Shown: positions 25,674-48,362 of the stretch, one piece after another
How positions within the stretch are numbered: the first letter of the stretch is position 1
Layout of the letters: every line of letters begins with the position of its first letter
Assembly (NCBI GenBank): GCA_963663895.2
Contig: CAXXRD010000002.1
Span: 480,001-544,000, forward strand
Direction: 5' to 3'
Length of the DNA: 64,000 nucleotides
From: Dehalococcoidia bacterium
GTDB lineage: Bacteria > Chloroflexota > Dehalococcoidia > Bin125
Translations under genes and position numbers: made by a program
Notes under the pieces: model-generated
Database searches by the model: none
The model's input: only the letters and a program-made list of their open reading frames with translations
Told to the model about the DNA's origin: nothing

Positions 25674-26738
25674 TTAAGCGCGCCCCGCCAGGATGTCGTC
25701 CAGACGGCGGCAGGCAGCACCGTGGTTGCCAATCCCGCCAGAACGCTCGACGGGAAGAAGCTCCGCCTCCCAACGCTCGCACTCCGGCTCACGGACCGGA
25801 CAGCGCGAGTAGAGGTTGCAGCCAGGCGGGAGGTTGATGGGGCTGGGGATCTCGCCACTGAGCGCGTACTCGGGCAGGCCCGCATCGGGGTCCGGGTAGA
25901 GGACGGCAGAGAGCAGCGAGCGCGTGTAGGGATGGACGGGGTTCTCGAAGACCGTGTCGGTGGGAGCGAACTCAACGACGAGGCCGAGGTACATCACGGC
26001 GACGCGATGGCTGATGCTGCGCACGGCGGTGAGGTCGTGGGAGATGAAGAGATAGGAGACGCCGAAGCGCTCTTGCACCTCCTGCAGTAGCTCGATGATC
26101 TCGAGGCGACCGCCCACATCCAGGTTGGAGACGGCTTCGTCGAGGACGATGAGGTCGGGCTGCATGATGAGGGAGCGCGCGACGGCACAGCGTTGCTGCT
26201 GGCTGCCGGTGAGGGCTTCGGGGTGCGAATCAGCGAGGACATCTGAGACTTGTACGGCGTCCAAGACTTCGGCGATACGCCTTTCCCGCTCGTCACGGGG
26301 GAGCTTGAGAATGCGCACGGCGTCGCGCAGGGCGGTGCGGATCGTCATGCGCGGGTTGAGCGAGTTGGACGGATCTTGGAAAACCATCTGGAGCTTGGGA
26401 CGGATCTTGCGGAACTCGCCCGTGCTCATATGACTGATGCGCTGGTCGTCGTACCAGATTTCGCCCGCGGTGGGCTCCGTGAGACGGAGCATGACACGGC
26501 CGAGGGTCGTCTTGCCCGAGCCTGACTCGCCGACGAGCCCGACGGTCTCACCGCGGCCAATCGTGAGATCGACGCCGCCGACGGCGACGAGATTCTCATG
26601 CCGCGAGATCTTGAAGTGCTTCGCAAGGTTGCGGACATCAATGAGGATGTCGTCTCCCGGCGAGACGGATTCGGCGTCCGTCGAAGGGGTAGCGGGTGCG
26701 TCTGGGGATTGAGTGTCGGTTGTCACGTTGTCAGTCAC
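25674..26738 (-). CDS. Dpp/Opp-type ABC ATPase (DppF-like)
   Basis: GESGSGKTT, HPYTRSLL, C-terminal PPGCNLYSRCP...AAC. Confidence 0.9.
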   Translation of the reverse strand: MTDNVTTDTQSPDAPATPSTDAESVSPGDDILIDVRNLAKHFKISRHENLVAVGGVDLTIGRGETVGLVGESGSGKTTLGRVMLRLTEPTAGEIWYDDQRISHMSTGEFRKIRPKLQMVFQDPSNSLNPRMTIRTALRDAVRILKLPRDERERRIAEVLDAVQVSDVLADSHPEALTGSQQQRCAVARSLIMQPDLIVLDEAVSNLDVGGRLEIIELLQEVQERFGVSYLFISHDLTAVRSISHRVAVMYLGLVVEFAPTDTVFENPVHPYTRSLLSAVLYPDPDAGLPEYALSGEIPSPINLPPGCNLYSRCPVREPECERWEAELLPVERSGGIGNHGAACRRLDDILAGRA

Positions 26739-26770
26739 TCCGTCACATCATCCGCTTCGTCGTGGTTGCG

Positions 26771-27598
26771 CTAGCGTGAAGCCGCGGCGGCAGACCATTC
26801 GGCCGCCTTCTGGCGCTCCAATACGGTGGCTCGCATCAACTCCTGGCTGACCGGATGCTGCTGCTCCTTGAAGAACGTGCGGACTTCGGCATTCTCAACG
26901 ATCCGTCCCTCGCTGACGACGGCGACGCGGTCACAGAAGTGGGCAACGATGCCGAGATCGCGCGTGACGATCAAGAGACCCACATTGTCCTCGCGGATGA
27001 GACCGGCGAAGTCCTCCAGAATCTGGCGCTGGATGGTGACGTCAATCCCCGTGGTGGGCTCATCGGCAACGATGAAACGGGGAGAGTTCGCCAAGGCCAT
27101 GGCGACGACCGTGCGCTGGGCCATGCCGCCGCTGAGCTCGTGCGGGTAAGCCAAGGCGCGCTTGTCCGGATCGGGAATGCCGACACGATCGAGGAGCTGA
27201 ATCGCACGCTCTAGCGCTTCTGCCTTGGCCATCTCGGGATGGTGGTCCCGCAGGACACGCACAATCTGGCGGCCCACTTTCTCGAGTGGGTTCAGCCGGA
27301 TGCGGCCCCCGGGCAGCACCAGAGAGAGTTCTTCTCCCAGGATTAACCGGCGGTCATCGGGAGGCATGGACAGCAGATCCTGGCCTTCAAACAAGATCTC
27401 ACCGCCGATGGGGACGACGGGGGGGCGCAGGAGACCGCCGATGGCGTGGACAAGCAGCGACTTTCCGGAGCCCGCCTCGCCGACGAGTCCCAGCGACTGG
27501 CCTGCCTCCACGCTGAGAGAGACATCTTCGAGCATGGTGTCGAACCCGGACTCGGCTCGACTGGGCAGGCCCACGGTGAGGTTCTTGATCTCGAGCAT
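26771..27598 (-). CDS. Dpp/Opp-type ABC ATPase (DppD-like)
   Basis: GEAGSGKS, YPHELSGGMAQR, ADEPTT. Confidence 0.9.
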   Translation of the reverse strand: MLEIKNLTVGLPSRAESGFDTMLEDVSLSVEAGQSLGLVGEAGSGKSLLVHAIGGLLRPPVVPIGGEILFEGQDLLSMPPDDRRLILGEELSLVLPGGRIRLNPLEKVGRQIVRVLRDHHPEMAKAEALERAIQLLDRVGIPDPDKRALAYPHELSGGMAQRTVVAMALANSPRFIVADEPTTGIDVTIQRQILEDFAGLIREDNVGLLIVTRDLGIVAHFCDRVAVVSEGRIVENAEVRTFFKEQQHPVSQELMRATVLERQKAAEWSAAAASR

Positions 27599-28584
27599 TA
27601 ACCGGCTTCCACTGAAGTTTCGGCTGACATGAGACCCTCCGCGCGCTTGACAGCCCGCATCCGAGCGGCGATGTCCTGCGCAGCGAAGGCGAAGATCAAA
27701 ACCATGAGGCCGAGCGCGACGCCTGGGAAGACCGAGGGCCACCACTCACCGGTGACCATATTGTTGGCGCCGACGCGGATCATGCCGCCCAACTCCGCTG
27801 TAGGCGGCTTTACGCCGGCACCAACGAAGCTGAGGCTGGCCGTAAAGAGGATGACGAAGCCGATGACCATGGGCACCGTTGCCACACTGGAGGCAACGGA
27901 GTTGGGGGCGAGGTGCCGGAAGATCAGGCGGAAGTTGCCGTGGCCGAGGATGCGGGCTGCGTCCGCATAGGGTTGCTCGCGAACGGTGAGCATCTCCGCA
28001 CGTGCGAGACGCGCGAAGACCGGCAAGTTCACGATGGTTAAGGCGATGATCACGATCTCCGTGGATTGCCCCCGGACGGCGACGAGCACGACGGCGAACA
28101 CGAAGAGCGGGAAGGACTGCAAGACATCCATGAAGCGCATGATGAGCTCGCTGGTCGCGGTCGCCGCGAGGGCGCGGCCTCCAATGTAGCCAGCCAGCAG
28201 ACCCAGCGGTACGCCGATGACGACGGAGAGCGCGGTGGCGGCAAGAGCGATCACGAGGTTGATGCGGGGGGCTGCCAGGACGCGGCTGAAGACATCCTGT
28301 CCAGAACGGTCGGTGCCGAAGAAGTGCGTGCCGCTGGGTCCTTCCAACGCATGTCCCGAGTCAATCTGCTCCGATCCCCAGCCGCAAGCACAGCCCGCGT
28401 CGGCGAGCCACGGTCCAATACTCGGCCCGATGACCGTGAGCAGAAGGATGATGCCGACTCCGCCGTAAACCGCGGCCGTCGTCAACCCCGGCTTCCGGAA
28501 GAGCATGCGCCTGAGGCCGTGAATCCGGCCGTCACCGGACGCGGCGAAGGAGTCCACAGTTTCCGAGGTGTCGGTTGTGGTCAC
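27598..28584 (-). CDS. Dpp/Opp-type ABC permease (DppC-like)
   Basis: HFFGTDRSGQDVFSR, YADAARILG..RHLAPN. Confidence 0.9.
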   Translation of the reverse strand: MTTTDTSETVDSFAASGDGRIHGLRRMLFRKPGLTTAAVYGGVGIILLLTVIGPSIGPWLADAGCACGWGSEQIDSGHALEGPSGTHFFGTDRSGQDVFSRVLAAPRINLVIALAATALSVVIGVPLGLLAGYIGGRALAATATSELIMRFMDVLQSFPLFVFAVVLVAVRGQSTEIVIIALTIVNLPVFARLARAEMLTVREQPYADAARILGHGNFRLIFRHLAPNSVASSVATVPMVIGFVILFTASLSFVGAGVKPPTAELGGMIRVGANNMVTGEWWPSVFPGVALGLMVLIFAFAAQDIAARMRAVKRAEGLMSAETSVEAG

Positions 28585-29663
28585 AGACGGATCCTCGGGT
28601 CCAAGGCGGCATGGGCGATATCGACGATCAGGTAGACCAGCATGACCCAGATCGCCGCCACCAGCATGAAGCTCTGAGCGGCGAGGAAGTCGTTCTGCAA
28701 GACGGACTCCACACCGTAGTTGCCAAAACCGTTCAAGCTGAAGATACGCTCAACCAACACGGCACCACCGAGGAGGAAACCGTAGATCACGCCGATGATG
28801 GTGATGATCGGGGGCAAGGCATTGCGGAACTGCATCCAGCGAATCGTGCCGGTCTTGAGGCCCATCCCCCGGGCGTTCTCCACGTAAGCGCTGCTCTGGA
28901 TCTCGGCCATCGACGTGATCGTCATCTTGAGAATCGGGCCGCCGTAGACGAAGACCAAGGTTGCGACGGGCAGGACCATATGCCCGACGTAGGACTTCAG
29001 CGCGCCGCCATCCCCATGGATGATCGAGTCGATCACGTTGAAGCCCGTGGTCTTTTCCGGCTCCGCACCCAGAGCGAAGTAACCGCCAGGCTCGGGGACG
29101 ATGTCCGCCGTCGCGTAGAAGAGGAAGATGAGGATCAGAGCCAGCCAAAAGTCGGCGAGCGATCCGGCCAAGAGCCCGTAAAACGTCACCACTTTGGAAA
29201 GCGCTCTGTCAAGCTTGGCGGTCCAGCCCGTCTGCTTGGGAGAGCCGGCCCGAATCCCCAAGGGAATCATGATGAGGAGCGCGACGACGAGCGCGGTGGT
29301 GATGAATTCCAGGGTTGCCGGGAGCCGGTCCCTGAAATCATGGGCGACGGACTGTCCGGTGAAGAAGGACTTGCCTAAGTCGCCATGCACCAGCCCGTTG
29401 ATATAGGTGAAGTATTGGGAGATGACCGGATCGTTGAGGCCGAGATCCTCCCGCAGGGAATTCCGCTGGACCTCAGTGGAGAGACCGCCGAGAAGGACGT
29501 CAACGATATCGCCGGGGACCAGCTTCAAGAGAATGAAGGTGATGATGGTGACAATGAAGAGTTGGGGGAGGAAAAAGAGAAGGCGGCGGCGAATGAAAGG
29601 TGAACTGAGCATCGCCTTGAACGGCGAGAGGAGCGCGTTAAGGCCTTTGGCAATCAGAGTCAC
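28581..29663 (-). CDS. Dpp/Opp-type ABC permease (DppB-like)
   Basis: LGLNDP..QY, GDLGKS, RLPATLE, YVENARGMG, LDPRI. Confidence 0.9.
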   Translation of the reverse strand: MTLIAKGLNALLSPFKAMLSSPFIRRRLLFFLPQLFIVTIITFILLKLVPGDIVDVLLGGLSTEVQRNSLREDLGLNDPVISQYFTYINGLVHGDLGKSFFTGQSVAHDFRDRLPATLEFITTALVVALLIMIPLGIRAGSPKQTGWTAKLDRALSKVVTFYGLLAGSLADFWLALILIFLFYATADIVPEPGGYFALGAEPEKTTGFNVIDSIIHGDGGALKSYVGHMVLPVATLVFVYGGPILKMTITSMAEIQSSAYVENARGMGLKTGTIRWMQFRNALPPIITIIGVIYGFLLGGAVLVERIFSLNGFGNYGVESVLQNDFLAAQSFMLVAAIWVMLVYLIVDIAHAALDPRIRL

Positions 29664-29930: not shown

Positions 29931-31322
29931 TCAGGCGGGACGCCGCCGGTGCCAGTCCGTGGTGAGCTGGAATTGGTGCCCCACGCGGAGCACTTGGGCC
30001 TCGTCCCAAGGACGGCCGGCGATCTGCAGGCCGACCGGGAGTCCCTGATCGTCGAAGCCGCAAGGGACGGTTAGCGCAGGCTGGCCGGTCAAGTTAAAGG
30101 GCCAGGTGCCGCGCAGCGAGGCAGCCATCACCGGCTCACGGAAGCCGTCCGGCGCGACGAACTCCTCCTGCTCGAAGGCGGCGGCAGTGGTAGGAACGGT
30201 GGGCGTGACAAGGACGTCAAGGCGATGCTCGTTGAAGAGGTCGCGCATGTCGGCGCCGATACGTGTGCGATTGCGGCGGGCGTTGATGTAGTCGGTGGCG
30301 AGGACGAGCTCGCCCTGCTTCAGCCAGCCGCGGACATCCGGTTGGTAGTCGTCGGCTTGGCGCCGCAGGCGGGCACCGTGCCAGGCGGAGGCCTCGGCGT
30401 TGAGGCCGGCTCCCGTCTCCTGCGTAAGGTCCAGGCTCAGCGGCATGCGGACTTCAGAGGTGGCGGCGCCGAGCCGCTGGAGGGCGGCGACCGCTTCGTC
30501 GAACGCGGCGGCGATGTCCGGATAGTGCGTCGTGAAATATCCGACGGCGACGCCGACGCGAAGCCCCGCGATCGGGCGGTCGAGCGCGGCGGGGTAGTCG
30601 GGCACGGGCTTGCGCGCGGTCGTCGCGTCCAACTCCGTGTGGCCGGCGAGCGCGTGGAGGACGCAAGCGGCATCTCGAGCAGTCCAGCACATCGGGCCGA
30701 CATGATCCATCGACCAGGTGAGGACGGCGACGCCGTCCTTCGGAACGCGGCCCATCGTCGCTTTCAGGCCGGTGATGCCGCAGAGCGCAGCGGGGATGCG
30801 AATAGAGCCGCCGGTGTCGGTGCCGAGGCCGAATGGGACATGTTCGGCGGCGATGGCGGCAGCGGTGCCACCACTGGAGCCGCCCGGCGTGCGGGCGGTG
30901 GCCGCGTCCCAGGGATTGCGCGTAGGCGGTGAGAGGATGCCGAAGGCGAACTCATGCGTGTTGGTCTTTCCGAGCATGACGGCGCCGGCGGCGCGCAGGC
31001 GCTGCACCACGGTGGCCTCTCGGGAAGGAACGTTGTGCCGCAGAACCTTTGAGGAGGATGTGGTCTCCACGCCGACGGTGTCGATCAGATCCTTGCAAGC
31101 GTAAGGGACGCCGTCCAAGGGGCCGATACGGCGCCCCTCGGCGCGGCGCGCGTCGGCGGCGTCAGCCTCGGCCAGCGCGCGATCGGGAGCAAGCGTCACC
31201 CAAGCCTGCAGCGTCGCATCGGTTTCGCCGATGCGCTCGATCGCTTGCGTCACGATCTCGCGACTGGAGAATTCGCCTGCTTGGAGGCCAGCGGCGAGGC
31301 GCTCCACGGTGAACGAGTCCAT
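29931..31322 (-). CDS. Amidase (GatA-like), array copy 5
   Basis: [24 protein letters not shown]; ATG 31322 after RBS AGGAG. Confidence 0.92.
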   Translation of the reverse strand: MDSFTVERLAAGLQAGEFSSREIVTQAIERIGETDATLQAWVTLAPDRALAEADAADARRAEGRRIGPLDGVPYACKDLIDTVGVETTSSSKVLRHNVPSREATVVQRLRAAGAVMLGKTNTHEFAFGILSPPTRNPWDAATARTPGGSSGGTAAAIAAEHVPFGLGTDTGGSIRIPAALCGITGLKATMGRVPKDGVAVLTWSMDHVGPMCWTARDAACVLHALAGHTELDATTARKPVPDYPAALDRPIAGLRVGVAVGYFTTHYPDIAAAFDEAVAALQRLGAATSEVRMPLSLDLTQETGAGLNAEASAWHGARLRRQADDYQPDVRGWLKQGELVLATDYINARRNRTRIGADMRDLFNEHRLDVLVTPTVPTTAAAFEQEEFVAPDGFREPVMAASLRGTWPFNLTGQPALTVPCGFDDQGLPVGLQIAGRPWDEAQVLRVGHQFQLTTDWHRRRPA

Positions 31323-31363: not shown

Positions 31364-32785
31364 CTAGTCGAGCACTGCCCCAGCGGGGGGACGGCGGTCG
31401 TGCCAGTCCGTGGCCTGTTGGAAGGCGTGGCCGACGCGGAGGATGGCGGTCTCCGCCCAAGGGCGGCCGGCGATCTGCAAGCCGACGGGGAGCGCGTTGG
31501 CGGTGAAGCCGCAAGGCACGGTCAAAACCGGCTGGCCGGTGAGGCTGAACGGGAAAGTGCAGCGGATGGTGCCGAAGACGAGCTCCTCTTCGAAGCCGTC
31601 CGGAGAGTGATAGTGCGTTTCGCCTTGGCGGACCGCGGGAGCGGGCACGGTGGGAGTGATCGTGACATCGAAGTCGTTGTAGAGGCGACGCATGATGGCG
31701 CCATAGCGACGCCGGTAGCGGCGGCCATTGATGTAGTCGGTGGCGAGGATGAAGTCGCCGGGACGGATCAAGCGGACGGTGATGGGCGGGTAGTCGGCCT
31801 CTTGCCTGCGGATGCGGCCCGCATGCCAGGCAGCGGCTTCCGGCATGCGGACGGCGAATCCGGGGACGTGCGGTGCGATGCCGTCGACGGTAGGGGCGGG
31901 GATGTCGCGCACGCTCGCGCCCAGTTGCTCCAGCACGGCGGCGGCGGCGTGGACGGCGTCGGTCACATCGGGGAAGCGGCTGGTGAAGTAGCCGCCCATG
32001 AGGCCGACACGCAAGCCTTGCAGCGGCCGCGGATCGCCCGCCTCCGATAGATCAGCGGTGAAGTCCGTGGGAGGGACACGGGCAGCGCTGGGGTCATCGG
32101 GGGTGTAGCCGGCGATGACGTTGAGGACGAAGCCGGCATCTTCGGCGGTGAGACAGAGGGGGCCAACGGTGTCGAGACTGTAGCCGACGACCGCCGTGCG
32201 GTCTTTGGGGACCCGGCCGAAAGTAGGCCGGAGGCCGGTGACCCCGTTCAGCGCCGCGGGGATGCGGATGGAGCCGCCGGTATCGGTGCCGAGCGCGAAG
32301 GGCACCTGCCGCGCGGCGACGGCAGCGCCAGAGCCGCCGCTGGAGCCGCCGGGGACATGATCCAAGCTCCAAGGGTTGCGCGTCGGCGGGGTGATTACGC
32401 CGTAGGCGAACGGTTGCGTATTGACCTTGCCAAGCATGACGGCCCCGGCGGCGCGCAGACGCGCGACGGTTGTGGCGTCCGTTTGGGGAACGTTGCCAGC
32501 AAGGAGATCCGCCGAGCAGGTGGTCTCGACGCCCTCCGTATCGATGATGTCCTTGACCCCGAACGGCACCCCGTCCAAGGGACCGCGGGCCGCGCCGCGG
32601 GCGCGGCGGGCGTCGGAGGCGGCGGCTTCATGCCGCGCGCGATCGGCGCAGAGACGGCTCCAGGCTTTGATGGCCGCATCGGTTTCGTCGATCCGGCGCA
32701 GGCAACCGTCGGCGATCTCCAGAGCGGAGCATTCACCGGCAGCCAGGGCGCGCGCGATCGCGGCGACGGTGAGCGGAGGAGACAT
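31364..32785 (-). CDS. Amidase (GatA-like), array copy 4
   Basis: [24 protein letters not shown]. Confidence 0.92.
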
Positions 32786-32793
32786 CACCGACC

Positions 32794-34218
32794 TCAGGCG
32801 GACCGGGCTGCGGCAGAGTCCACCATCGGCGGCCGGCGCCTGTGCCAGTCGGTCGCATGCTGGAATGCGTGACCAACGCGAAGGACAGTCGCCTCGGCCC
32901 AAGGGCGGCCGGCGATCTGCAAGCCGATGGGCAAACCGGCATCATCGAAACCACAAGGGACTGTGAGCGCGGGCTGACCGGTCATGTTGAAGGGAAAGGC
33001 GCAGCGAACGGAGGCCCAAACGAGATCTTCGACGAGGCCGTCGGCAGAGCGATAGTCCCCCTGGCCCACGGCACCAGCGGTCACGGGAACCGTGGGTGTG
33101 ATCAGGACGTCGATCTGATGGCGCTCGTAGAGGCGCTGCATCTCGAGATTGAAGCGGCTGCGGTAACGCCGGGCGTTGATGTAATCGGTGGCAAGCATGG
33201 CGGCACCGTGTTGAAGGAACGTCGCGACATCCCCGGGATAGTCGTCGCGCTGGCGGGAGAAGCGATTCGCGTGCCAGGCCAGCGGCTCGGAGAAGTGGAT
33301 GGCGAGGCCGGGGACGTGCGGCGTCAGGCCGCCGACGGTGGGGGCAGCGGCGATGGGACACAGCGTCGCGCCCAGCTGCCCAAGCGTGTCCGCAGCCGTC
33401 TCAATGGCGGCGCTGACGGCCGGAAAGTGGCTGGTGAAGTACCCCCCAGGCATGCCGATGCGCAGGCCGCCGATGGGCTGCCCGAGCTCGCGAGTGAAAT
33501 CTTCGCCGGGGCGGCGGGAAGAGGTGGGATCGCGAAGACCGTGGCCGGCGAGCGCGTTGAGGGCGATAGCAGCGTCCTCGGCCGTCCAGCACATGGGACC
33601 AACGTGATCGAGGGACCAACAGAGGACGGCGACACCGTCCTTGGGAACGCGGCCAAAGGTGGGCTTGAGGCCGGTGATGCCGCACAGCGCGGCGGGAGCG
33701 CGGATCGAGCAGCCGGTGTCCGTGCCGAGCGTGAGGGGGACGTGGGTGGCAGCGACGGCGGCGCCAGAGCCCCCGCTGGAGCCGCTAGGGATGTGATCTG
33801 CGTTCCAAGGGTTACGCGTCGGCGGAGAGACGACGCCGTAAGCGAAAGCGTGCGTGTTGACTTTGCCGACGGCGATGGCGCCCGCGGCGCGCAGGCGGGC
33901 GACGGCAGTCGCGTCTTCCGTTGGGACGTTGCCCGCGAGGACATCCGAGGCGCAGGTGGTCTCGACACCTGCGCTATCGATGATGTCCTTGATGCCGAAG
34001 GGGATGCCGTCGAGCGCGCCGAGGCGTCGTCCAGCGGCACGGCGCGCGTCGGAGGCGTCCGCCTCTTCGAGAGCCCGTTCCGGACAAAGCCGCAGCCAGG
34101 CTTGAATCCGATCGTCGGAGCGCGCAATGCGGCGGAAGGTCTCCTCGACGACTTCGCGCGCGGAGAAATCGCCGCGGTCGAGCCCGGTCGCGATCGCGGC
34201 GATGGTCGTCGGGATCAC
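32794..34218 (-). CDS. Amidase (GatA-like), array copy 3
   Basis: GIKDII, PSGSSGG, GTDTGCSIRAP (variant oxyanion loop). Confidence 0.92.
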   Translation of the reverse strand: MIPTTIAAIATGLDRGDFSAREVVEETFRRIARSDDRIQAWLRLCPERALEEADASDARRAAGRRLGALDGIPFGIKDIIDSAGVETTCASDVLAGNVPTEDATAVARLRAAGAIAVGKVNTHAFAYGVVSPPTRNPWNADHIPSGSSGGSGAAVAATHVPLTLGTDTGCSIRAPAALCGITGLKPTFGRVPKDGVAVLCWSLDHVGPMCWTAEDAAIALNALAGHGLRDPTSSRRPGEDFTRELGQPIGGLRIGMPGGYFTSHFPAVSAAIETAADTLGQLGATLCPIAAAPTVGGLTPHVPGLAIHFSEPLAWHANRFSRQRDDYPGDVATFLQHGAAMLATDYINARRYRSRFNLEMQRLYERHQIDVLITPTVPVTAGAVGQGDYRSADGLVEDLVWASVRCAFPFNMTGQPALTVPCGFDDAGLPIGLQIAGRPWAEATVLRVGHAFQHATDWHRRRPPMVDSAAARSA

Positions 34219-37192: not shown

Positions 37193-37385
37193 TGGGCGCG
37201 TCACCCCAGTCCGGCACGAAGACGTCCGCAGGGGCCCAGTCGTCGAAGTCGTCCGGGCGCATGGTGCGCCAGGCGTCGAGCATGCCTTGCAGGCTTTCGC
37301 GCAGGGTTTCGGCCTCAGCGTCGGTGATCGAGAGATCGGCCACCTCGGCCAAGGCTTTCACGTGGTTTGTGGTGAGCTGTGTCAT
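37185..37385 (-). CDS. Small GatC-like amidase accessory subunit (66 aa)
   Basis: VKALAEVADLSITDAEAETLRESLQGML resembles the GatC N-terminal helices (V..lA.LArL.l.eeE.e.l..qL..il); strong RBS AAGGAGG; overlaps the start of amidase 1. Confidence 0.7.
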   Translation of the reverse strand: MTQLTTNHVKALAEVADLSITDAEAETLRESLQGMLDAWRTMRPDDFDDWAPADVFVPDWGDAPNA

Positions 37386-39682: not shown

Positions 39683-40711
39683 TTAGACGGTCTTCCTCCA
39701 CTCGCCGGCAACCTTGATCTCACGCGCGGCCGGCATGACCTCGGCGCCGATGCGCTCGACCTGCTCCCGCAGTTCGGCCATCTCGCCGGAGGGACAGTCG
39801 AAGATGAAGACGACGAGACTGTAACCGGCGTCGGCGAAGCGCTGCAGATCCCCAAGGATCTGCTCGCCGGTGCCGGTGCAGATCTTACGCGGGCTCCGTT
39901 GCGATTCGGCGTGATCGGCGTCCGTGATCTGCGCCGACGAGATGCACAGCATGGAGAACTCGCCCGGGTCTTTCGCGGCCGCGTCGAGCTCTCCGCGGAT
40001 GATGTCTTGCAGCGGAGCGAAGCGATGGGGATCGGCTCCGGGATCGAGGAAGATGGGATAGAAACCGTCACAGAGCCGGGCGGCGCGGCGCGCGCCGGCG
40101 GGGACCACGCTGCCGAAAACGATGGGCGGGCGCGGCTGCTGCACGGGCTTGGGGTCCATAGAGAGATTGTCGAAGTCGTAGTGGTCGCCGTGGAAAGCGA
40201 CCACGTCGTCCGTCCAGGAGCGCTTGTAGATCTCGATGCATTCCTCCGTTTGCGCGCCACGGGCTTCATAGGCGAGCCCGAGCGCGTCGAACTCCTCCTC
40301 AAGCCAGCCGGCGCCGACGCCCAGGATGAGGCGACCGGCGGAGAGGACATCGACGCTGGCGAACTGGCGCGCGTCGTTGAGGGGGCCGCGGTAGGGCGCG
40401 ATGAGGACGGAGGTGCCGAGGCGGATGCGGCTGGTGCCGGCGGCGACGGCGCCCATGGCGACGGCCGCGTCGACGAGGTTATGGGAAGGCTCGTAGGCGC
40501 GGGTGCGCGACTCGTTGGCGACGTGGCCGCTCGTGGAGCTAATGGGCATGCACACGTGGTCCGGGAACCACATGGAATGCATGCCGATGCGCTCGGCCAT
40601 CTGCGCGATGCGGACGGGCTGCATCTCGATGGCCGGGATGCTCTGCGCGAAGAAGTTCTCGTCGTCGCGCAGGCCGATGCCGTGCGTGGGCGCGTACATC
40701 CCGATCTCCAT
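39683..40711 (-). CDS. LLM-class (probably F420-dependent, Rv2161c-like) oxidoreductase, copy 1
   Basis: GMHSMWFPDH, ASVDVLSAGRLILGVGAGW..EEF, PKPVQQPRPPI. Confidence 0.88.
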   Translation of the reverse strand: MEIGMYAPTHGIGLRDDENFFAQSIPAIEMQPVRIAQMAERIGMHSMWFPDHVCMPISSTSGHVANESRTRAYEPSHNLVDAAVAMGAVAAGTSRIRLGTSVLIAPYRGPLNDARQFASVDVLSAGRLILGVGAGWLEEEFDALGLAYEARGAQTEECIEIYKRSWTDDVVAFHGDHYDFDNLSMDPKPVQQPRPPIVFGSVVPAGARRAARLCDGFYPIFLDPGADPHRFAPLQDIIRGELDAAAKDPGEFSMLCISSAQITDADHAESQRSPRKICTGTGEQILGDLQRFADAGYSLVVFIFDCPSGEMAELREQVERIGAEVMPAAREIKVAGEWRKTV

Positions 40712-40819: not shown

Positions 40820-41290
40820 CTACTCCAGGTCGGTGTACTGCTCCGCGACCCAGCCCTTCTCGTAGGGCGAGACGAAGTCCAGGTTGGCGTTGACGTTCTG
40901 GAAGTACCACTTGCCGTCGACTTTGACGTACTCGTCGCGATAGGTGCCGGCGCACCACATGGCCTGCGGGCCTTTGAAGGTAGCGGGCATGATGATGTAC
41001 CAGCTGCCCTTGGCGGTCGTGCCGGAGGGATCGACCTCGATCTTGTCGCCGACCGTGAGGTGCAGAGCGAACTCGATCGTGTCCGAGGCGCCGGCGAAGA
41101 ACTCGCGGATGGCGGCGCGGCCCTCGTAGCGGCCAAACATGCCGCCGTCCCAGATGGCGTCCTCCACGAACAGCGAGGCGATGCCGTCGGGATTGTACTG
41201 ATCGTCGCAGTACATCGCGTACTGGGTTTTCAGGTCCCGAATCTCCTGGATGTCCAATAATCGCTGGACTTTCTCCTCTAACGATGCCAT
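40820..41290 (-). CDS. SnoaL/NTF2-like (BaiE/LinA-like) protein, copy 7
   Basis: KTQYAMYCD, FVEDAIWD, FALH, YRDEYVKVDGKW, PYEKGW. Confidence 0.88.
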   Translation of the reverse strand: MASLEEKVQRLLDIQEIRDLKTQYAMYCDDQYNPDGIASLFVEDAIWDGGMFGRYEGRAAIREFFAGASDTIEFALHLTVGDKIEVDPSGTTAKGSWYIIMPATFKGPQAMWCAGTYRDEYVKVDGKWYFQNVNANLDFVSPYEKGWVAEQYTDLE

Positions 41291-41397: not shown

Positions 41398-41901
41398 CTA
41401 TTCGCCCATCTGCGGCAAGGGCGCTTCGGCAGCCCAGCCCTGGTGGTAGGGCGAGCGGAACTGAATATGGGATCGAACGTGCTTGATGAGCCAGCGGCCA
41501 TCGCGCTTGACGAAGTCGTCGTCATAGGTGGCAGCGAGCCAAATCGGCCGGCCGTCGGCGGTGATGGTCTCCCAAGTGTACCAGTGGCCGGTGGCCTCGA
41601 CGCCGGAAGGGGCGATGTCGATGCTGGGCGCAATGGTGTGGTGCTTGGCGAAGGTGAGCCGCGCCGCCCAGCCGGCGAAGAGCGCGCGCAGCGCCTCCCT
41701 GCCCTCGTGGCGGCCGTGCACGTTGGACTCCCAGATCGCGTCGTCCGCGAAGAGCGCCAGGAAGCGGTCGTCCGGCCAAGCTGCGTTCTCGTGGCAGAGG
41801 CCCGCATCCATTAGCTTGGCGTAGGTGTGCTTGAGCTGGCGGACGGCGGCGATGTCCTCAAGGCGCTGGAGACGCTGCTCGACGGTGCGCTCAGACGGCA
41901 C
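41398..41901 (-). CDS. SnoaL/NTF2-like protein, copy 6
   Basis: KHTYAKLMD, FADDAIW, FAKHH, YDDDFVKRDGRW, PYHQGW. Confidence 0.88.
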   Translation of the reverse strand: MPSERTVEQRLQRLEDIAAVRQLKHTYAKLMDAGLCHENAAWPDDRFLALFADDAIWESNVHGRHEGREALRALFAGWAARLTFAKHHTIAPSIDIAPSGVEATGHWYTWETITADGRPIWLAATYDDDFVKRDGRWLIKHVRSHIQFRSPYHQGWAAEAPLPQMGE

Positions 41902-41923: not shown

Positions 41924-42385
41924 TCAGGCCGTCTGGTCCGCCACCCGCTGCCGGACCCAGCCCTTGTCGTAGGGCGTCATGAAGTGCAGCTCCTGGCCGA
42001 GACGGGTGACCATCCAGCAGCCGTCGATCTTCTTGAGCGTCGCGTCGTGGGTGAGGCCTCCGATGTGGGCGGTGCCGTTGAGGTTGGGAGTCTCGAAGCC
42101 GTACCAGGTAGCCGTGGCCTCGTCGCCGTCGATATCGATCGCGTAGCCGTCCCAGTAGTGCATGGTGAAGGGAACCCGTGCGCGCATGCCGTCGATGAAC
42201 TCCTGGATGGCGGCGCGGCCCGTGTACACGCCCATCTCCATCAGGTCCATGACGCCATCCTCGCTGAAGTGGCCGGCGAAGGCGGCGCCGTCGTAAGGAG
42301 CGTCGCAAGTGGCGCCGACGGCGGCGAGGACGCGCCGCACGGCTTCGATCTCCTCCAGCGTTCGAATGCGATCTTCGATCGACAC
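41924..42385 (-). CDS. SnoaL/NTF2-like protein, copy 5 (divergent)
   Basis: VGATCD (Tyr lost), FSEDG, FTMHY, PYDKGW. Confidence 0.85.
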   Translation of the reverse strand: MSIEDRIRTLEEIEAVRRVLAAVGATCDAPYDGAAFAGHFSEDGVMDLMEMGVYTGRAAIQEFIDGMRARVPFTMHYWDGYAIDIDGDEATATWYGFETPNLNGTAHIGGLTHDATLKKIDGCWMVTRLGQELHFMTPYDKGWVRQRVADQTA

Positions 42386-42430: not shown

Positions 42431-42898
42431 TCAGTCCATGGGCATCATGGGGGTTTTGACCCAGCCGTCCTCGTAGGGGGTGAAGAAGTGCAGGTTGGCG
42501 TTGACCTGCTTGAAGCGCCAATTGTCGCCGACCTTTTGGTAAACGTCGTCGTACGTGGCACCGAGGAAAACGGCGCGACCGTTCACGGTGGCGGGCTCCC
42601 AGATATACCAGTGACCGGTGCCGGAGGTGAAGGGCGGATCGACGTCAATGGTGTGGCCGATCATGTAATGCAGCGCGAAGGTGAAGGCCTTGGAGGCACC
42701 TTCCCAGAAACCGCGGATCTGGTCGTGTCCCTCGTAGCGGCCGAGGTCGCCGCCGTCCCAGACGGCGTCTTCCGTGAAGAGAGCGGTGAGACCCGGCGGA
42801 TCGTAGTTGGCGTCACAGAGCTGTGCATAGCGGATCTTGAGACGGCGGATGCCTTCGATCGCTTCCAGGCGTTGGACTCGTTCTTCCAGGTCGGCCAT
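42431..42898 (-). CDS. SnoaL/NTF2-like protein, copy 4
   Basis: KIRYAQLCD, FTEDAVWD, FALHY, YDDVY, PYEDGW. Confidence 0.88.
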   Translation of the reverse strand: MADLEERVQRLEAIEGIRRLKIRYAQLCDANYDPPGLTALFTEDAVWDGGDLGRYEGHDQIRGFWEGASKAFTFALHYMIGHTIDVDPPFTSGTGHWYIWEPATVNGRAVFLGATYDDVYQKVGDNWRFKQVNANLHFFTPYEDGWVKTPMMPMD

Positions 42899-42945: not shown

Positions 42946-43410
42946 CTAGCCGGGCAGCATCGGCGTCTTCACCCAGCCGTCTTCGTAGGGCGTGATGAAG
43001 TGGATGTTGACGCGCATGCGCGACGCCAGCCAGGTGCCCTCGACGTTGCGGTACTCGTCGTCGTAGGTGATGGCGCCGAGCGTGGCGGCGTTGTTGATGG
43101 TCATCGGCGCCCAGAGGTACCAGTGGCCCGTCGCGGAGCCGGCAGCGAGATCGACGTCGATCGTCTGCCCCACCATGTAGTGGAGGGCGAAGCTGATCTG
43201 CTCGGGGATGCCGTCGAACAGCGCCTTGATGGCGGCGCGGCCGCGGTGCACGCCGAACGACTCGCCGCCGTCCCAGACGGCGTCCTCGGTGAAAAAGGCC
43301 GAGATGCGGTCGCCGTCGTAGCCGTCGTCGGCGACGCGCGCGTAGGCGATCTTGAGGCGGCGGATCGCCTCGATCGCTTCGAGCCGCTGCACGCGCTCTT
43401 CGAGATCCAT
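42946..43410 (-). CDS. SnoaL/NTF2-like protein, copy 3
   Basis: KIAYARVAD, FTEDAVWD, FALHY, YDDEY, PYEDGW. Confidence 0.88.
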   Translation of the reverse strand: MDLEERVQRLEAIEAIRRLKIAYARVADDGYDGDRISAFFTEDAVWDGGESFGVHRGRAAIKALFDGIPEQISFALHYMVGQTIDVDLAAGSATGHWYLWAPMTINNAATLGAITYDDEYRNVEGTWLASRMRVNIHFITPYEDGWVKTPMLPG

Positions 43411-43453: not shown

Positions 43454-43924
43454 CTACCCGTCCGTGACCATGCGCGTCTTCACCCACCCGTCCTCGTAGG
43501 GGGTGAGGAAGTGGAAGGTGAGGGCCATGCGAGAGAAGAGCCACTCGCCGTCCACTTTCCTGTGCTCGTCGTCGTAGGTGATGGCGTTGAGGATGGCGCG
43601 GCCCTGATAGGTCATGGGCTCCCACAGATACCAGTGCGCCTTGGCCGAGGTACCGGACGGGTCGACGTCGATGGTGTGCCCGATCATGTAGTGCAGGGCG
43701 AAGGTGAGGTCGTTCGACATGTCGTCGAACATCGCCCCGATCGCCCCCCGGCCGTTCTGGACGCCGAACTCCTTGCCGCCGTCCCAGACGGCGTCCTCCG
43801 TGAAGAGGGCGGCGAGCTTGCCGCCGTCATAGCCGGTGTCGCAGAGCCGGGCGTACCTGATCTTGAGACGGCGGATCGCCTCAATGTCCTCCAGGAGCTG
43901 GACACGATCCTCCAACGATGCCAT
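43454..43924 (-). CDS. SnoaL/NTF2-like protein, copy 2
   Basis: KIRYARLCD, FTEDAVWD, FALHY, YDDEH, PYEDGW. Confidence 0.88.
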   Translation of the reverse strand: MASLEDRVQLLEDIEAIRRLKIRYARLCDTGYDGGKLAALFTEDAVWDGGKEFGVQNGRGAIGAMFDDMSNDLTFALHYMIGHTIDVDPSGTSAKAHWYLWEPMTYQGRAILNAITYDDEHRKVDGEWLFSRMALTFHFLTPYEDGWVKTRMVTDG

Positions 43925-44071: not shown

Positions 44072-44533
44072 CTAGGTTTCGATGAACTGCTGCTGGACCC
44101 AGCCTTTGTCGTACGGGGTGGCGAAATGGAAGTTCAGCTTGGAGAAGGCGATCTTCCACTCGCCGTCCACGCGCTTGTAGCGGTCGTTGTAGGTGATGGC
44201 GATCCAGATCGGCTCGCCGCTCTCGGCCGTGGCGGGCTCCCAGAGGTACCAGTGGCCGGTGGCGTCGTCGCCGTCGACATCAATGGTCTGGCCCATCATG
44301 TAGTGGAGGAAGAAGGGGAGCTTCTTCTTGGCCTCCTCGAAGAATTCGGTGATCTGCGCGCGGCCCTTGGCCTCGCCGACGAGGCCGCCGTCGAGCTCGG
44401 CGTCCTCGGTGAAGAGGGCGGCGTACTGGGCGCCGGGGACGCGCTCGTCGACGGCGCGGGCGTAGGCGATCTTGAGGCGGCGGATGGCCTCCAGGTCCTC
44501 CAATAGCTTGACGCGTTCCTCGAGTGTCGGCAT
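44072..44533 (-). CDS. SnoaL/NTF2-like protein, copy 1
   Basis: KIAYARAVD, FTEDAELD, FFLHY, YNDRYKRVDGEW, PYDKGW. Confidence 0.88.
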   Translation of the reverse strand: MPTLEERVKLLEDLEAIRRLKIAYARAVDERVPGAQYAALFTEDAELDGGLVGEAKGRAQITEFFEEAKKKLPFFLHYMMGQTIDVDGDDATGHWYLWEPATAESGEPIWIAITYNDRYKRVDGEWKIAFSKLNFHFATPYDKGWVQQQFIET

Positions 44534-44714
44534 GGTGACTCTCCTTTCCTGATCCGGTTGCGATGCGGATGCCTCGACAGCTAGCGGCACGGAGGGTAGC
44601 GGACGCGCCGTCCGCGCGGCGACGATTGCAGCCGGTTCTATACTCCGAGGCAGCGCGCCCTTTGCGCGGCCGATGCGGAACGGGGACGCGCAGGCTCAAG
44701 TAAAGGACCACCCG

Positions 44715-45971
44715 ATGAGCAGCAACAACGGCGATCAGCACCAGAACGGTCAAGGCCCGCTGGCGGGGATCAAGGTCATCGAGTGCAGCACCTGGGCCTT
44801 CGGGCCGATCGCCGGGCACATGCTGGGCGACTTGGGCGCGGACGTGATCAAGGTCGAGAACCCGAACCTGCCGGACGCGGCGCGGGGGCTGACGCTGGTG
44901 GCGGGCGTGGACGTGGGCCTGCCGGACGGCGCCAGCTCGGTGTTCGAGCTGTTCAACCGCAACAAGCGCTCGATCCAGATCGATCTGAAGCAGGAGCGCG
45001 GCCGCGACCTGCTGAAGGAGCTCGTGCGGGACGCCGACGTGTTCCTCGAGAACTTCCGGCCCGGCGTGTTCGACCGGCTCGGCATCGGCTACGACGACCT
45101 GGCCAAGGTAAACTCGCGGATCATCTACGCCTCGACCTCGGGCTACGGGTTCAAGGGCGCGGAGGGGCAGCGGCCGGCGCTCGACCCCGTCGGGCAGGCG
45201 CGCTCGGGGCTGATGTGGTCGACGGGAGGGCCGGGCGACCCGCCCAACTGGAACACGCTGGGGTTCGCGGACCTGATGGGCGGCAACATGCTGGCCTACG
45301 GAATCGTGAGCGCCCTGGCGGCGCGGGAGCTGCACGGGGTGGGGCAGAAGGTGGAGTGCTCGCACCTGATGGCATCGATGTGGCTCGGGCACACGGCGAT
45401 CGCGAGCGCCTGGTATCAGGGAGACGGGGAGTGGGAGCGGTTCGAGCGCAGCGAGGCGAGCAACCCCCTGGCCAACCACTACGCCTGCGGCGACGGCGAG
45501 TGGCTGCTGCTGGCGCTGTCCGACTCGAACGCGGACTGGTCGAGCTTGTGCGAGGCGCTGGATCTGGAGGCGCTGATCGAGGAGCCGCGCTTCGCCACGG
45601 CGGAGCGCCGGCGAGAGAACGCGGTGGCCCTGGTGGCGCTGCTGGACGCGCGCTTCGGCGAGCGGCCCGCGGCGGAGTGGCAGCAGCGGTTCGCGGAGAG
45701 CGAGGCGGTGACGGTGCATCCGCTGCGCCGGATCGCGGATCTCCCGAACGATCCGGCGGTGCAGGCGAACGGATACTTCACGGACGGCGTGCACCCGCGC
45801 TACGGGCCGATGCCCGAGCTGCTGCACCCGGTCGCGTTCGGGAAGACGCCCGCGACGGTCCGGCGCTACGCGCCCCAGCTGGGCGAGCACACCTGGGAGG
45901 TGCTGCACGAAGAGCTGGGCTACGACTCCGAGCGGATCGCCGGGCTGACCGCGGAGGGCGTCGTCGGCTAG
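44715..45971 (+). CDS. Class III CoA-transferase (CaiB/BaiF family)
   Basis: LGDLGADVIKVE, NRNKRSI, ENFRPG, catalytic Asp in GFADLMGG, APQLGEHT. Confidence 0.92.
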   Translation: MSSNNGDQHQNGQGPLAGIKVIECSTWAFGPIAGHMLGDLGADVIKVENPNLPDAARGLTLVAGVDVGLPDGASSVFELFNRNKRSIQIDLKQERGRDLLKELVRDADVFLENFRPGVFDRLGIGYDDLAKVNSRIIYASTSGYGFKGAEGQRPALDPVGQARSGLMWSTGGPGDPPNWNTLGFADLMGGNMLAYGIVSALAARELHGVGQKVECSHLMASMWLGHTAIASAWYQGDGEWERFERSEASNPLANHYACGDGEWLLLALSDSNADWSSLCEALDLEALIEEPRFATAERRRENAVALVALLDARFGERPAAEWQQRFAESEAVTVHPLRRIADLPNDPAVQANGYFTDGVHPRYGPMPELLHPVAFGKTPATVRRYAPQLGEHTWEVLHEELGYDSERIAGLTAEGVVG

Positions 45972-46008
45972 GGCCGGCCATTTCCCGCCGGAACGCGAGG
46001 GGGTAATC

Positions 46009-47232
46009 GTGGCCGAGGGTGCGCTGCGGGGGATCACGATCATTGAGGCGGCGACGCACGTCCTGGGGCCGATGGCCGCCGCCATGCTGGGCGACCAGGG
46101 CGCGGACGTGATCAAGGTCGAGGGCTTGGCGGGCGACCCGGCGCGCACGCTGCGCGAGTACGCGGGCTACGACGTCTCGCTCGGAGAGGAGAGCAACGCG
46201 ATCTTCGAGGTGATGAACCGCAACAAGCGGGGGATCGCGATCGACCTGGAGAGCGCGGCCGGCCGCGGCCTGCTGCGGGAGCTGCTGAGCACGGCGGACG
46301 GATTCATCGAAGGGTTCGGGCCGGGAGCGCTGGCGGCGCGCGGGCTGAGCTACGAGTCGTTGGCGAACGAGAACCCGGGGCTGATCTACTGCGGCCTCAG
46401 CGCGATGGGGCCGGCAGGGGAGGAGGCCGCGGCGCCGGGGCCGGACGCGGCGGCGGCGGCGCGGTCGGGCCTACTGTGGATGGCGGGCGCGCCGGGCAGC
46501 CCGCCCAACTGGAACAACCTCGGCCTGGGTGACACGATGGGCGCCAGCATGGTGGCCTACGGCATGGTGGCGGCGATCACGGCGCGGGCGCGGGGCGGAA
46601 CGGGGCAGCGGCTGGACGTGTCGCAGCTCATGGCGCTGGCCTGGCTGGAGCGCTGGGCCGTGGAGACGCTGCTGGTGCGCGGGCTGGACGAGTGGCCGCG
46701 CTTCGATCGCGAGAACACCCGCAACCCGCTGTTCAGCCACTACCGCTGCGGCGACGGGGAGTGGATCATCCTGGGGATCGTCGACCACGAGCGCGACTGG
46801 GATCCGTTCTGCGAGGCGATGGGGCTGGAGTGGATGCACGGGGACGAGCGCTTCAACACGGGCGCAGCGCGCATCGCCAACGCCCGGGCGCTGGTGCAGG
46901 CGCTCGATCGGCGCTTCGCGGAGGAGCCGCGAGCCTACTGGGAGGAGCGGCTGGGGTCGCAGCGGGCGCTGGTGTTCGACCGGGTGCAGAAGATCCGGGA
47001 CCTGCCGCAGGACCCGGCGGTCCAGGCCAACGCCTACCTCCAGGACGTAGAGCACCCGCGCCACGGACCGGTGAAGATGCTCACGCACCCCGCGCTGCTG
47101 ACGAAGACGCCGGCGGCTTACTACTGCCCGGCGCCGGAGCTGGGCCAGCACACGGACGCCGTGCTGCGCGAGCGGCTGGGCTACGACGACGCCCGGATCG
47201 CGGCGCTGCGCGCCGAGGGCGTGATCCGCTAG
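46009..47232 (+). CDS. Class III CoA-transferase (CaiB/BaiF family)
   Basis: LGDQGADVIKVE, NRNKRGI, GLGDTMGA, APELGQHT. Confidence 0.92.
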   Translation: MAEGALRGITIIEAATHVLGPMAAAMLGDQGADVIKVEGLAGDPARTLREYAGYDVSLGEESNAIFEVMNRNKRGIAIDLESAAGRGLLRELLSTADGFIEGFGPGALAARGLSYESLANENPGLIYCGLSAMGPAGEEAAAPGPDAAAAARSGLLWMAGAPGSPPNWNNLGLGDTMGASMVAYGMVAAITARARGGTGQRLDVSQLMALAWLERWAVETLLVRGLDEWPRFDRENTRNPLFSHYRCGDGEWIILGIVDHERDWDPFCEAMGLEWMHGDERFNTGAARIANARALVQALDRRFAEEPRAYWEERLGSQRALVFDRVQKIRDLPQDPAVQANAYLQDVEHPRHGPVKMLTHPALLTKTPAAYYCPAPELGQHTDAVLRERLGYDDARIAALRAEGVIR

Positions 47233-48359: not shown

Positions 48360-48362
48360 CGG

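Follow-up and report, generated by a model that had tools for sequence, protein, structure and literature searches.

What does a locus do in which consecutive blocks of paralogous genes, each block drawn from a single family, follow one another over many kilobases? The case at hand lies in a 64,000-nucleotide stretch (hereafter the window) of contig CAXXRD010000002.1, from the assembly GCA_963663895.2 of a Dehalococcoidia bacterium. Between positions 25674 and 44590, the minus strand encodes 2 ATP-binding cassette (ABC) ATPases, 2 permeases, 5 amidases, a 66-residue open reading frame (ORF), 3 luciferase-like monooxygenase (LLM) family oxidoreductases and 7 SnoaL_4 proteins. All long minus-strand ORFs of this approximately 19-kb gene run belong to five Pfam families in unbroken blocks (21 proteins scanned). 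A plus-strand pair of class III coenzyme A (CoA)-transferases (44673-47232) faces the array, with 3 more within 8 kb. We conclude that this is a real and conserved, probably catabolic locus equipped with panels of paralogs. The more specific reading that we favour, to which we give about an even chance, is a lineage-specific catabolic super-operon made of two modules, with a paralog panel for each step.

Within-family identity is 48-60% for the amidases, 54-65% for the LLMs, 31-65% for the SnoaLs and 48% for the CoA-transferases. With starts refined by Shine-Dalgarno (SD) motifs, spacers are 5-147 bp inside the blocks and 267 bp before the permeases, and one divergent region separates the array from the CoA-transferase pair:

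44534-44714, no strand: divergent intergenic region, 181 bp, between SnoaL 7 and CoA-transferase 1

An initial annotation, made from the sequence alone, had described tandem single-family blocks on the minus strand, short spacers and this divergent region; the Pfam, ORF and identity analyses bear out the blocks, and the SD-refined starts bear out the rest. The divergent region holds a single, weak inverted repeat of 9 nt (44663-44692); no sigma-70-like site was found there, and the inverted-repeat search gave nothing above chance. An Rfam scan of the window had no match inside the cluster. The main cluster has its 20 genes all intact. Between the window genome (G000) and a congeneric genome (G002), the ratio of non-synonymous to synonymous substitution rates (dN/dS) is 0.03-0.20 for all 22 genes, including the 66-residue ORF, indicating purifying selection and speaking against redundant, decaying copies. 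The notion of a paralog panel for each enzymatic step is supported in the sense of diverged, conserved paralogs under purifying selection.

The window genome comprises 2.37 Mb in 5 contigs, has approximately 67% G+C and is 91% complete. For the phosphoenolpyruvate carboxykinase (PEPCK) encoded in the window, identity is 66-72% with proteins from Tepidiformaceae, Tepidiformales and Dehalococcoidia metagenome-assembled genomes and 66% with the Tepidiforma flava protein, suggesting that the host is a Dehalococcoidia-class member of the Chloroflexota near the Tepidiformales. Membership of SAR202, first assumed from paralog counts, was dropped, as the nearest named PEPCK relatives are Tepidiformales. 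We compared the array with those in two congeneric genomes (G001 and G002) and in a genome from another genus of the same family (G011). G001 and G002 have the whole array in the same order with all 5 amidases intact, and G011 has the same block order with 2 amidases, 1 small ORF, 3 LLMs, 4 SnoaLs and 2+2 CoA-transferases. There, an epimerase, a zinc alcohol dehydrogenase, 2 ATPases, 2 permeases, the amidases, the small ORF, the 3 LLMs and the SnoaLs are followed divergently by CoA-transferases 1 and 2 and then by 2 CoA-transferases, a short-chain dehydrogenase/reductase (SDR), HpaB, another SDR and a hydantoinase. The same block order in three other genomes excludes chance and argues against both misassembly and decay. 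Thus, synteny of the blocks, which had been put forward as a check, is kept across two genera, and the concern that the array could be misassembled is answered by its presence in three further assemblies. Within the order, the SnoaL subfamily (E<=1e-20) occurs in 8 of 65 genomes: the three genomes of this genus carry 13 copies each, G011 carries 20, and four genomes of two further genera carry 1-2; it was found in none of the 37 and none of the 9 genomes of the two largest genera.

To what extent the copies arose in place was judged from trees made in quick IQ-TREE runs, with branch support given as SH-aLRT. In the amidase tree, the cluster copies from the four genomes group in a single clade (14 rows, support 100), apart from the other 13 amidases of the window genome; amidase 2 itself was left out of this tree and is represented by its G001 ortholog, which is sister to amidase 3. 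Since the amidases form one clean clade, this block expanded by local duplication. The 13 SnoaL paralogs of the window genome all lie in a clade confined to this bacterial family (41 rows, support 99), in which the window copies are mixed with paralogs encoded at other loci, and in the LLM and CoA-transferase trees, too, paralogs from elsewhere in the genome nest among the window copies. Judged from these trees, the SnoaL, LLM and CoA-transferase families have also seeded other loci or been seeded from them. The expectation of local duplication therefore holds for the amidases but not for the other three families, while the copies do group with the lineage's own loci rather than with unrelated ones. 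G011 has orthologs of SnoaLs 2, 3 and 6, LLMs 2 and 3, amidases 4 and 5, and CoA-transferases 1, 2 and 5, so that most of the array is older than the divergence of the two genera; in the tree, amidases 1-3 occur only within this genus.

The amidase block reads as follows:

29931-31322, minus strand: amidase 1; Pfam Amidase 8.1e-109; ORF open to 31514, SD-supported start at 31322; dN/dS 0.13
31364-32788, minus strand: amidase 2; Pfam Amidase 2.9e-103; ORF open to 32902, start at 32788 or 32785; dN/dS 0.09
32794-34218, minus strand: amidase 3; Pfam Amidase 4.2e-104; GGAG SD motif; dN/dS 0.11
34274-35677, minus strand: amidase 4; Pfam Amidase 3e-107; ortholog in G011
35768-37204, minus strand: amidase 5; Pfam Amidase 5.1e-103; start GTG at 37204 or ATG at 37192, overlapping the stop of the 66-residue ORF

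All 5 have a full-length Pfam Amidase domain (profile positions 1-445 or 4-445). The catalytic triad of signature amidases is Ser-cisSer-Lys, and Lys85, Ser157/Ser158 and Ser181 (amidase 5 numbering) are kept in every copy. The best NCBIfam family for all 5 is NF006631 (AtzE), at 323.5-337.7 bits (336 bits for amidase 1). The closest solved relative of amidase 5 is 6c62_A (8.4e-75), followed by GatA; the 6c62 depositor label is "Biuret hydrolase", and we take this to be the AtzE entry. By sequence, then, the amidases look AtzE/GatA-like.

The smallest gene of the array sits between the LLM and amidase blocks:

37185-37385, minus strand: 66-residue GatC/AtzG-like ORF; GGAGG SD motif; stop overlaps the start of amidase 5; dN/dS 0.03

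Copies that are 73-100% identical occupy the same place in G001, G002 and G011. By itself the ORF has no Pfam match up to E 10 (including GatC PF02686 and AtzG-like PF13318) and no NCBIfam gatC match; single-sequence phmmer against the PDB reached GatC only at E 0.88, and a word-index homologue search gave only 2 close relatives. A profile of 8 small ORFs, 4 of whose rows were picked for a position upstream of amidases and a similar look, matches the GatC chain 2df4_C at E 1.4e-4 over residues 1-53. Searching 1.84 billion representatives with the profile returned 113 proteins at E<=1e-3, mostly 57-125 residues long. We scanned 109 sequences, namely the window ORF and 108 library relatives (4 long matches are not among them, nor is P0002, which already served as a row of the query profile). 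Among them, gatC TIGR00135 is matched by 33, Pfam GatC by 24, NF000684 by 19, NF009461 by 16, Pfam AtzG-like by 7, and HpxX, NF000681 and Pfam GatF by 1 each, with no other family. The initial GatC-like call for this ORF is thus borne out at the profile level (2df4_C at E 1.4e-4; gatC matched by 33 of the 109 scanned sequences).

A complex model of the 66-residue protein with amidase 5 has an ipSAE of 0.67, compared to 0.00 for the best of three controls; of 80 solved complexes, 58 attain that mark, as do 2 of 110 mismatched pairs. Contact agreement across runs is at least 87%, and the partner pLDDT is at least 76. Given that GatCA and AtzEG complexes have already been solved, this pass may reflect likeness only and is not proof of binding. 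On the strength of profile and model, the ORF is a candidate GatC/AtzG-type small subunit predicted to bind amidase 5, and the overlapping stop and start suggest translational coupling to this first amidase of the block. In the described system AtzG has no catalytic role, and AtzE needs it to be soluble, according to the accessible part of PMC6219798. Only amidase 5 has a GatC-derived ORF upstream; the other 4 amidases lack one of their own. Interface identity among the 5 amidases (0.39-0.58, versus 0.52-0.56 elsewhere) carries no signal as to whether all of them bind the small subunit. GatC-like ORFs of 63-71 residues also lie directly upstream of other amidases, 3 in the window genome and 1 in G011:

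G000 C2:635681-635887 (L045:1881-2087), minus strand: GatC-like ORF upstream of amidase
G000 C3:293001-293216 (L046:302-517), plus strand: GatC-like ORF upstream of amidase
G000 C1:178765-178977 (L041:3766-3978), plus strand: GatC-like ORF upstream of amidase
G011 L036:2458-2649, plus strand: GatC-like ORF upstream of amidase

Because small ORFs precede these further amidases, heteromeric AtzEG-type amidases seem common in the lineage.

The transporter genes complete the minus-strand run at its far end:

25674-26738, minus strand: DppF/OppF-like ABC ATPase; Pfam ABC_tran 7.6e-30 and oligo_HPY 4.6e-17; dN/dS 0.05 versus G002
26771-27598, minus strand: DppD/OppD-like ABC ATPase; Pfam ABC_tran 1.2e-24; ORF open to 27745, likely start ATG at 27598
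27598-28584, minus strand: DppC/NikC-like ABC permease; Pfam BPD_transp_1 2.3e-24; NCBIfam Opp2C/Opp4C-like, under the cut-off
28581-29663, minus strand: DppB/NikB-like ABC permease; Pfam BPD_transp_1 and BPD_transp_1_N; 4-nt overlap with the next permease

For the DppF/OppF-like protein, the best NCBIfam match is a dipeptide ABC ATP-binding protein, under its cut-off, and for the DppD/OppD-like ORF, NCBIfam alignments start near residue 48-51 of the long ORF. In G011, nothing lies between permease and amidase in a tblastn search with the window proteins. The idea of Dpp-type import stands as far as the permeases and ATPases are concerned, but a peptide or amide cargo is not borne out, as no binding-protein gene is present in cis.

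Beyond the LLMs, the array continues with the SnoaL proteins:

40820-41290, minus strand: SnoaL_4 1; Pfam SnoaL_4 2.5e-28; Tyr, Asp and His kept
41398-41901, minus strand: SnoaL_4 2; Pfam SnoaL_4 2e-22; G011 ortholog (support 98)
41924-42385, minus strand: SnoaL_4 3; Pfam SnoaL_4 2.2e-20; Tyr missing, Asp and His kept; G011 ortholog (support 100)
42431-42898, minus strand: SnoaL_4 4; Pfam SnoaL_4 7e-23
42946-43410, minus strand: SnoaL_4 5; Pfam SnoaL_4 7e-21; model pLDDT 96.8
43454-43924, minus strand: SnoaL_4 6; Pfam SnoaL_4 3.1e-24; ORF open to 44014, GGAGG-supported start at 43924; G011 ortholog (support 86)
44072-44533, minus strand: SnoaL_4 7; Pfam SnoaL_4 4e-26; ORF open to 44590, start at 44533

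The Pfam families of this block are SnoaL_4 and SnoaL_2, and all 7 proteins pass the SnoaL_4 cut-off. BaiE, LinA and scytalone dehydratase are cofactor-free elimination enzymes, and the catalytic dyad of LinA is Asp-His. Among the 14 profile matches to solved sequences, the closest are LdpA (5e-15), BaiE (1e-14) and LinA (2.7e-8). In Foldseek, the model of SnoaL 5 has BaiE 4leh on top (E 7e-11), with LinA at TM-scores of 0.80-0.83, LdpA at query-normalised values (TMq) of 0.83-0.85, and a putative scytalone dehydratase also among the nearest folds; in the ESM Atlas, SnoaL 5 falls in generic SnoaL_4 clusters only. AtzH (DUF3225) is absent from the 14 sequence matches and from the fold matches listed, which extend to rank 50 of at least 500. 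In the alignment, Asp and His are present in all 7 window proteins and Tyr in 6 of the 7; a set of 23 relatives shows no variation at Asp and His and has the Tyr in at least 90%. These residues align with BaiE Tyr30/Asp35/His83, which form the active centre of that enzyme as far as the accessible text of PMC11110704 goes; the comparison covered these three positions. LdpA, a diarylpropane lyase (PMC9942872), carries out a cofactorless deformylation, going by the title of a paper on it. The analogy to BaiE and BaiF that had been drawn for this locus is borne out as regards family, fold and catalytic residues.

The LLM block lies between the SnoaLs and the small ORF:

37516-38541, minus strand: LLM 1; Pfam Bac_luciferase 2.3e-49; TIGR03619 211.7 bits
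38579-39631, minus strand: LLM 2; TIGR03619 212.1 bits; ortholog in G011
39683-40711, minus strand: LLM 3; TIGR03619 202.7 bits; ortholog in G011

All three pass the 166.9-bit cut-off of TIGR03619, the F420-dependent LLM family, and by this measure would be F420-type enzymes. The window genome encodes CofD (310.9 bits) and CofE (263.3 bits), both above their cut-offs. No flavin reductase gene is among the Pfam matches of the cluster.

The CoA-transferases comprise the divergent pair and 3 genes further downstream:

44715-45971, plus strand: CoA-transferase 1; Pfam CoA_transf_3 6.7e-105; ORF open from 44673; G011 ortholog
46009-47232, plus strand: CoA-transferase 2; Pfam CoA_transf_3 3.5e-97; G011 ortholog
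51443-52670, plus strand: CoA-transferase 3, frameshifted in the assembly; tblastn pieces in frames 2 and 3
52713-53941, minus strand: CoA-transferase 4, frameshifted in the assembly; tblastn pieces in frames -3, -2 and -1
53956-55215, minus strand: CoA-transferase 5; Pfam CoA_transf_3 1.1e-106; G011 ortholog

CoA-transferases 1, 2 and 5 cover CoA_transf_3 profile positions 1-366. The closest solved relative of CoA-transferase 1 is the succinate-hydroxymethylglutarate CoA-transferase (SUGCT) 9br6 (1.4e-54), and the nearest solved CoA-transferases, SUGCT and formyl-CoA transferase (Frc), are dicarboxylate enzymes. Relative to G001, CoA-transferase 3 has 1-nt insertions at 52016, 52117, 52333, 52395 and 52658, and CoA-transferase 4 has insertions at 53318 and 53680. 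Several of these seven single-base insertions in 51443-53941 lie within G or C runs, and the frameshifts are either real decay or a local assembly error.

Two further loci of the genome bring together SnoaL, LLM and CoA-transferase genes of the subfamilies seen in the array. Genome-wide tblastn (query cover at least 50%) matched SnoaLs 13 times, LLMs 32 times, amidases 18 times and class III CoA-transferases 22 times. At 175-195 kb of contig C1, a small ORF, an amidase, a hydrolase, a CoA-transferase, 2 LLMs, a SnoaL and a second CoA-transferase lie together, and at 306-326 kb of the same contig 2 SnoaLs, enoyl-CoA hydratases, 2 CoA-transferases, a DAO-type oxidase and an LLM do so. With 5.9% of the genome within 12 kb of a SnoaL as background, the window locus counted and the subfamilies defined after seeing the trees, SnoaLs are found within that distance of the following:

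LLM subfamily: 4 of 8 loci (binomial P 7e-4)
CoA-transferase clade: 3 of 5 loci (binomial P 2e-3)
All amidases: 4 of 12 loci (binomial P 4e-3)

We propose that old tandem duplications produced the array and that it combines two modules. Module A would consist of a Dpp/Opp-type importer, whose binding protein would be encoded elsewhere or absent, and the 5 Ser-cisSer-Lys amidases of the AtzE/GatA branch; it may take up and hydrolyse amide- or ureido-bearing organic acids to ammonia and free carboxylates. In module B, class III CoA-transferases would move CoA from a donor thioester onto carboxylates, and the F420-type LLMs and the BaiE/LinA/LdpA-type SnoaLs would act on the acyl-CoAs by redox chemistry and cofactor-free elimination, the latter as loss of water or another leaving group. 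Diverged paralogs at each step would widen the substrate range. In all this we infer the order of the steps, the substrates, the use of F420, co-transcription and a single pathway shared by both modules.

Several results weigh against this picture of two coupled modules. The C1:306-326 kb locus has the module B families without any amidase, and modules A and B may simply be neighbours. At 19 SnoaL loci outside this bacterial family, an LLM adjoins in 2 (Binatia) and the full trio in none by tblastn, and the four of these loci with Pfam annotation have unrelated neighbours. None of the 5 amidases reaches the curated AtzE cut-off (NF006631, 461 bits), and the CoA-transferases miss all NCBIfam equivalog cut-offs, so that no substrate can be read from homology. 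A gene for a cluster-5 (SBP_bac_5) binding protein is found neither in the cluster nor in the window; the 9 matches in the genome all lie at other places. A search of the 91%-complete genome for the FO synthase genes did not turn up cofG or cofH, which makes F420 supply uncertain; FO may have to come from outside the cell, or these genes may be missing from the assembly. As to co-transcription, a promoter and terminator scan was uninformative (0 promoter-like sites versus 1.9 expected, 5 terminator-like sites versus 8.7 expected), and no regulator gene is among the Pfam matches of the window.

A bolder version of the two-module reading, which we consider unlikely, takes the trio of CoA-transferase, F420-type LLM and SnoaL_4 as an undescribed CoA-dependent redox/elimination module that would have been multiplied in cis and genome-wide into substrate panels. 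Here it would be coupled to 5 heteromeric amidases sharing one GatC-derived subunit, and would remove nitrogen and functional groups from a family of alicyclic or dicarboxylic acids in amide-conjugated form.

Among the alternatives, the one that survives best, and which we regard as possible but doubtful, is nitrogen scavenging from ureides or ring-opened N-heterocycles in the manner of the atzGEH and hpx systems. The AtzEG-like amidases would then be the core; the SnoaLs would be AtzH-like, i.e., NTF2-fold hydrolases or decarboxylases keeping unstable intermediates from dead ends; the LLMs would be ring-opening or N-oxidising monooxygenases; and the CoA-transferases would be unrelated neighbours. 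The amidases point this way, with best NCBIfam and solved-structure matches of AtzE type and GatA next, as does the GatC/AtzG-like small subunit, whose relatives match HpxX (1) and Pfam AtzG-like (7). The window also holds hydantoinase A and B subunits, a molybdenum hydroxylase with CoxG, and further amidases. The atzG-atzE-atzH clusters of Proteobacteria (Esquirol et al. 2018), as far as the accessible portion of PMC6219798 describes them, likewise have a GatC-derived gene directly upstream of an AtzE/GatA-type amidase, together with an NTF2-fold protein, an ABC transporter, further amidases and, in some, a monooxygenase; their proposed role, as here, is catabolism of nitrogenous amide compounds. 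In contrast to these clusters, the window locus has 5 amidases per small subunit, all under the AtzE cut-off, F420-type LLMs, linked class III CoA-transferases and a Chloroflexota host. Moreover, its NTF2-fold proteins are 7 SnoaL_4 copies of BaiE/LinA type with the BaiE-type Tyr-Asp-His, and not AtzH, which belongs to DUF3225, has catalytic Tyr22/Arg46 in the text of PMC6219798 that we could access, and is missing from the matches listed above. The LLMs fit the F420-oxidoreductase and not the FMN-monooxygenase family, and the cluster is without a flavin reductase gene. Finally, the SnoaL, LLM and CoA-transferase subfamilies recur together at an amidase-less locus, which ties the CoA-transferases to the SnoaLs instead of leaving them as bystanders.

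A bai-like route, in which steroid-like or carboxyl-rich alicyclic acids undergo CoA-dependent oxidation and dehydration or dehydroxylation while the amidases deconjugate them like bile-salt hydrolase, seems to us improbable. The locus resembles the bai operon of Clostridium scindens and relatives in the SnoaL_4 fold, the aligned Tyr/Asp/His and the adjoining class III CoA-transferase, and in its logic of CoA thioester formation, redox and elimination. BaiE is the top fold match and among the top sequence matches, and BaiF belongs to the class III CoA-transferase family (PMC5395668, in its accessible text). However, the Pfam matches include no members of the BaiB, BaiCD, BaiH or BaiA families and thus no BaiCD/BaiH-type flavoproteins or hydroxysteroid dehydrogenases; LLMs replace the old-yellow-enzyme-type flavoproteins, amidases and an ABC importer are attached, identity to BaiE is approximately 25%, and there are 7 copies here, compared to one in the bai operon. 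In addition, the match to BaiE is about equalled by those to LinA, LdpA and scytalone-dehydratase-like proteins, and the nearest solved CoA-transferases are SUGCT and Frc, not BaiF.

We think it very unlikely that the SnoaL_4 copies are a panel of LinA-like dehydrohalogenases for halogenated natural products. LinA (hexachlorocyclohexane dehydrochlorinase) is a structural neighbour at TM-scores of 0.80-0.83, and its Asp-His dyad matches the invariant Asp and His. LinA and LdpA are close solved relatives in both sequence and fold, share the NTF2 fold and are cofactor-free, yet identity is approximately 20%, LdpA chains have 233-244 residues versus approximately 155 here, and the genomic contexts are unrelated. 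The sequence match to LinA (2.7e-8) is weaker than those to LdpA (5e-15) and BaiE (1e-14), no other dehalogenase family is among the Pfam matches of the window, and nothing else suggests halogens. The halogenated substrates envisaged initially have nothing in their favour except the relationship to LinA, and LinA is no nearer a relative than BaiE or LdpA.

That the arrays are an assembly artefact, or redundant decaying copies without separate functions, is scarcely credible despite the two nearby CoA-transferase genes that are frameshifted in the assembly, as the copies, at 31-65% identity, are too diverged for collapsed or expanded repeats, the array recurs in three other assemblies, dN/dS is at most 0.20 in 22 genes, and the catalytic residues are kept.

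The statement that no described system has this architecture was too strong, given the atzGEH-like clusters and the expansions of LLM and CaiB/BaiF proteins in Chloroflexota, both described in the accessible parts of PMC6219798 and PMC5395668. The latter study (Landry et al. 2017) reports many LLM and CaiB/BaiF paralogs in SAR202, which recalls the 32 LLM and 22 CoA-transferase matches in 2.37 Mb here; the FMN/F420-dependent LLM and CaiB/BaiF expansions were read, in the portion of the paper we had, as a broader range of organic acids fed into CoA pools. Its main text contains none of the terms SnoaL, amidohydrolase, tandem and operon, and the window locus differs in its ordered tandem blocks kept across genera and in having Tepidiformales as nearest named relatives. 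We found no paper describing the block architecture or these families combined in Chloroflexota, although the cluster maps of PMC6219798 (S3 Fig), which lie outside the part available to us, may show closer ones; a Tepidiforma paper had 0 occurrences of the family names, and no paper was found that pairs SnoaL with SAR202. The locus is unusual in layout, its parts are ordinary, and nothing here establishes a new kind of system.

What makes the array attractive for enzyme discovery is its compact, conserved set of 15 diverged enzymes from an uncultured Chloroflexota lineage. They fall into three families in which the members characterised so far catalyse unusual reactions: amidases of AtzE type with their vestigial GatC subunit, cofactor-free eliminases of the NTF2 fold, and LLMs of F420 type. 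The array may also serve as a natural experiment in how tandem duplication builds substrate breadth and as a test case for the sharing of a single GatC-like subunit among paralogous amidases, and it offers linked candidates for the as yet unassigned TIGR03619 LLM family and for many Chloroflexota CaiB/BaiF-type transferases.

Between CoA-transferases 2 and 3, the minus strand has an ORF of approximately 1000 residues (48265-51400, open to 51738), for which codon-position G+C speaks. The ORF contains the motifs NPPF and DLACGTG, has no Pfam match at 1e-4 and lies in DNA with a lower local G+C of 0.62; in PADLOC, it matches mad2 (2.5e-13), a type II methyltransferase (6e-9) and PglX (2e-4). The corresponding gap in G011 is only approximately 0.9 kb. 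The ORF is probably an inserted methyltransferase or defence gene.

The rest of the window, judged by predicted function, places the cluster within a wider island rich in putative enzymes for nitrogen-containing compounds. Upstream, 10257-15635 encodes a CoxG-like protein and a molybdenum hydroxylase large subunit (Pfam), and downstream, 60377-63988 encodes hydantoinase/oxoprolinase A and B subunits (Pfam). Near the start of the window, 2 adjacent plus-strand ORFs of 320 and 308 residues (1033-1995 and 2008-2934) are flanked by an amidase gene on either side and show no Pfam match at E 0.05. A thiamine pyrophosphate (TPP) riboswitch occupies 19043-19145 on the plus strand (58.1 bits, Rfam gathering score 54.3), and directly downstream of it an NMT1/THI5-like binding protein, a permease and an ATPase (19188-21923) probably form a thiamine-precursor transporter.

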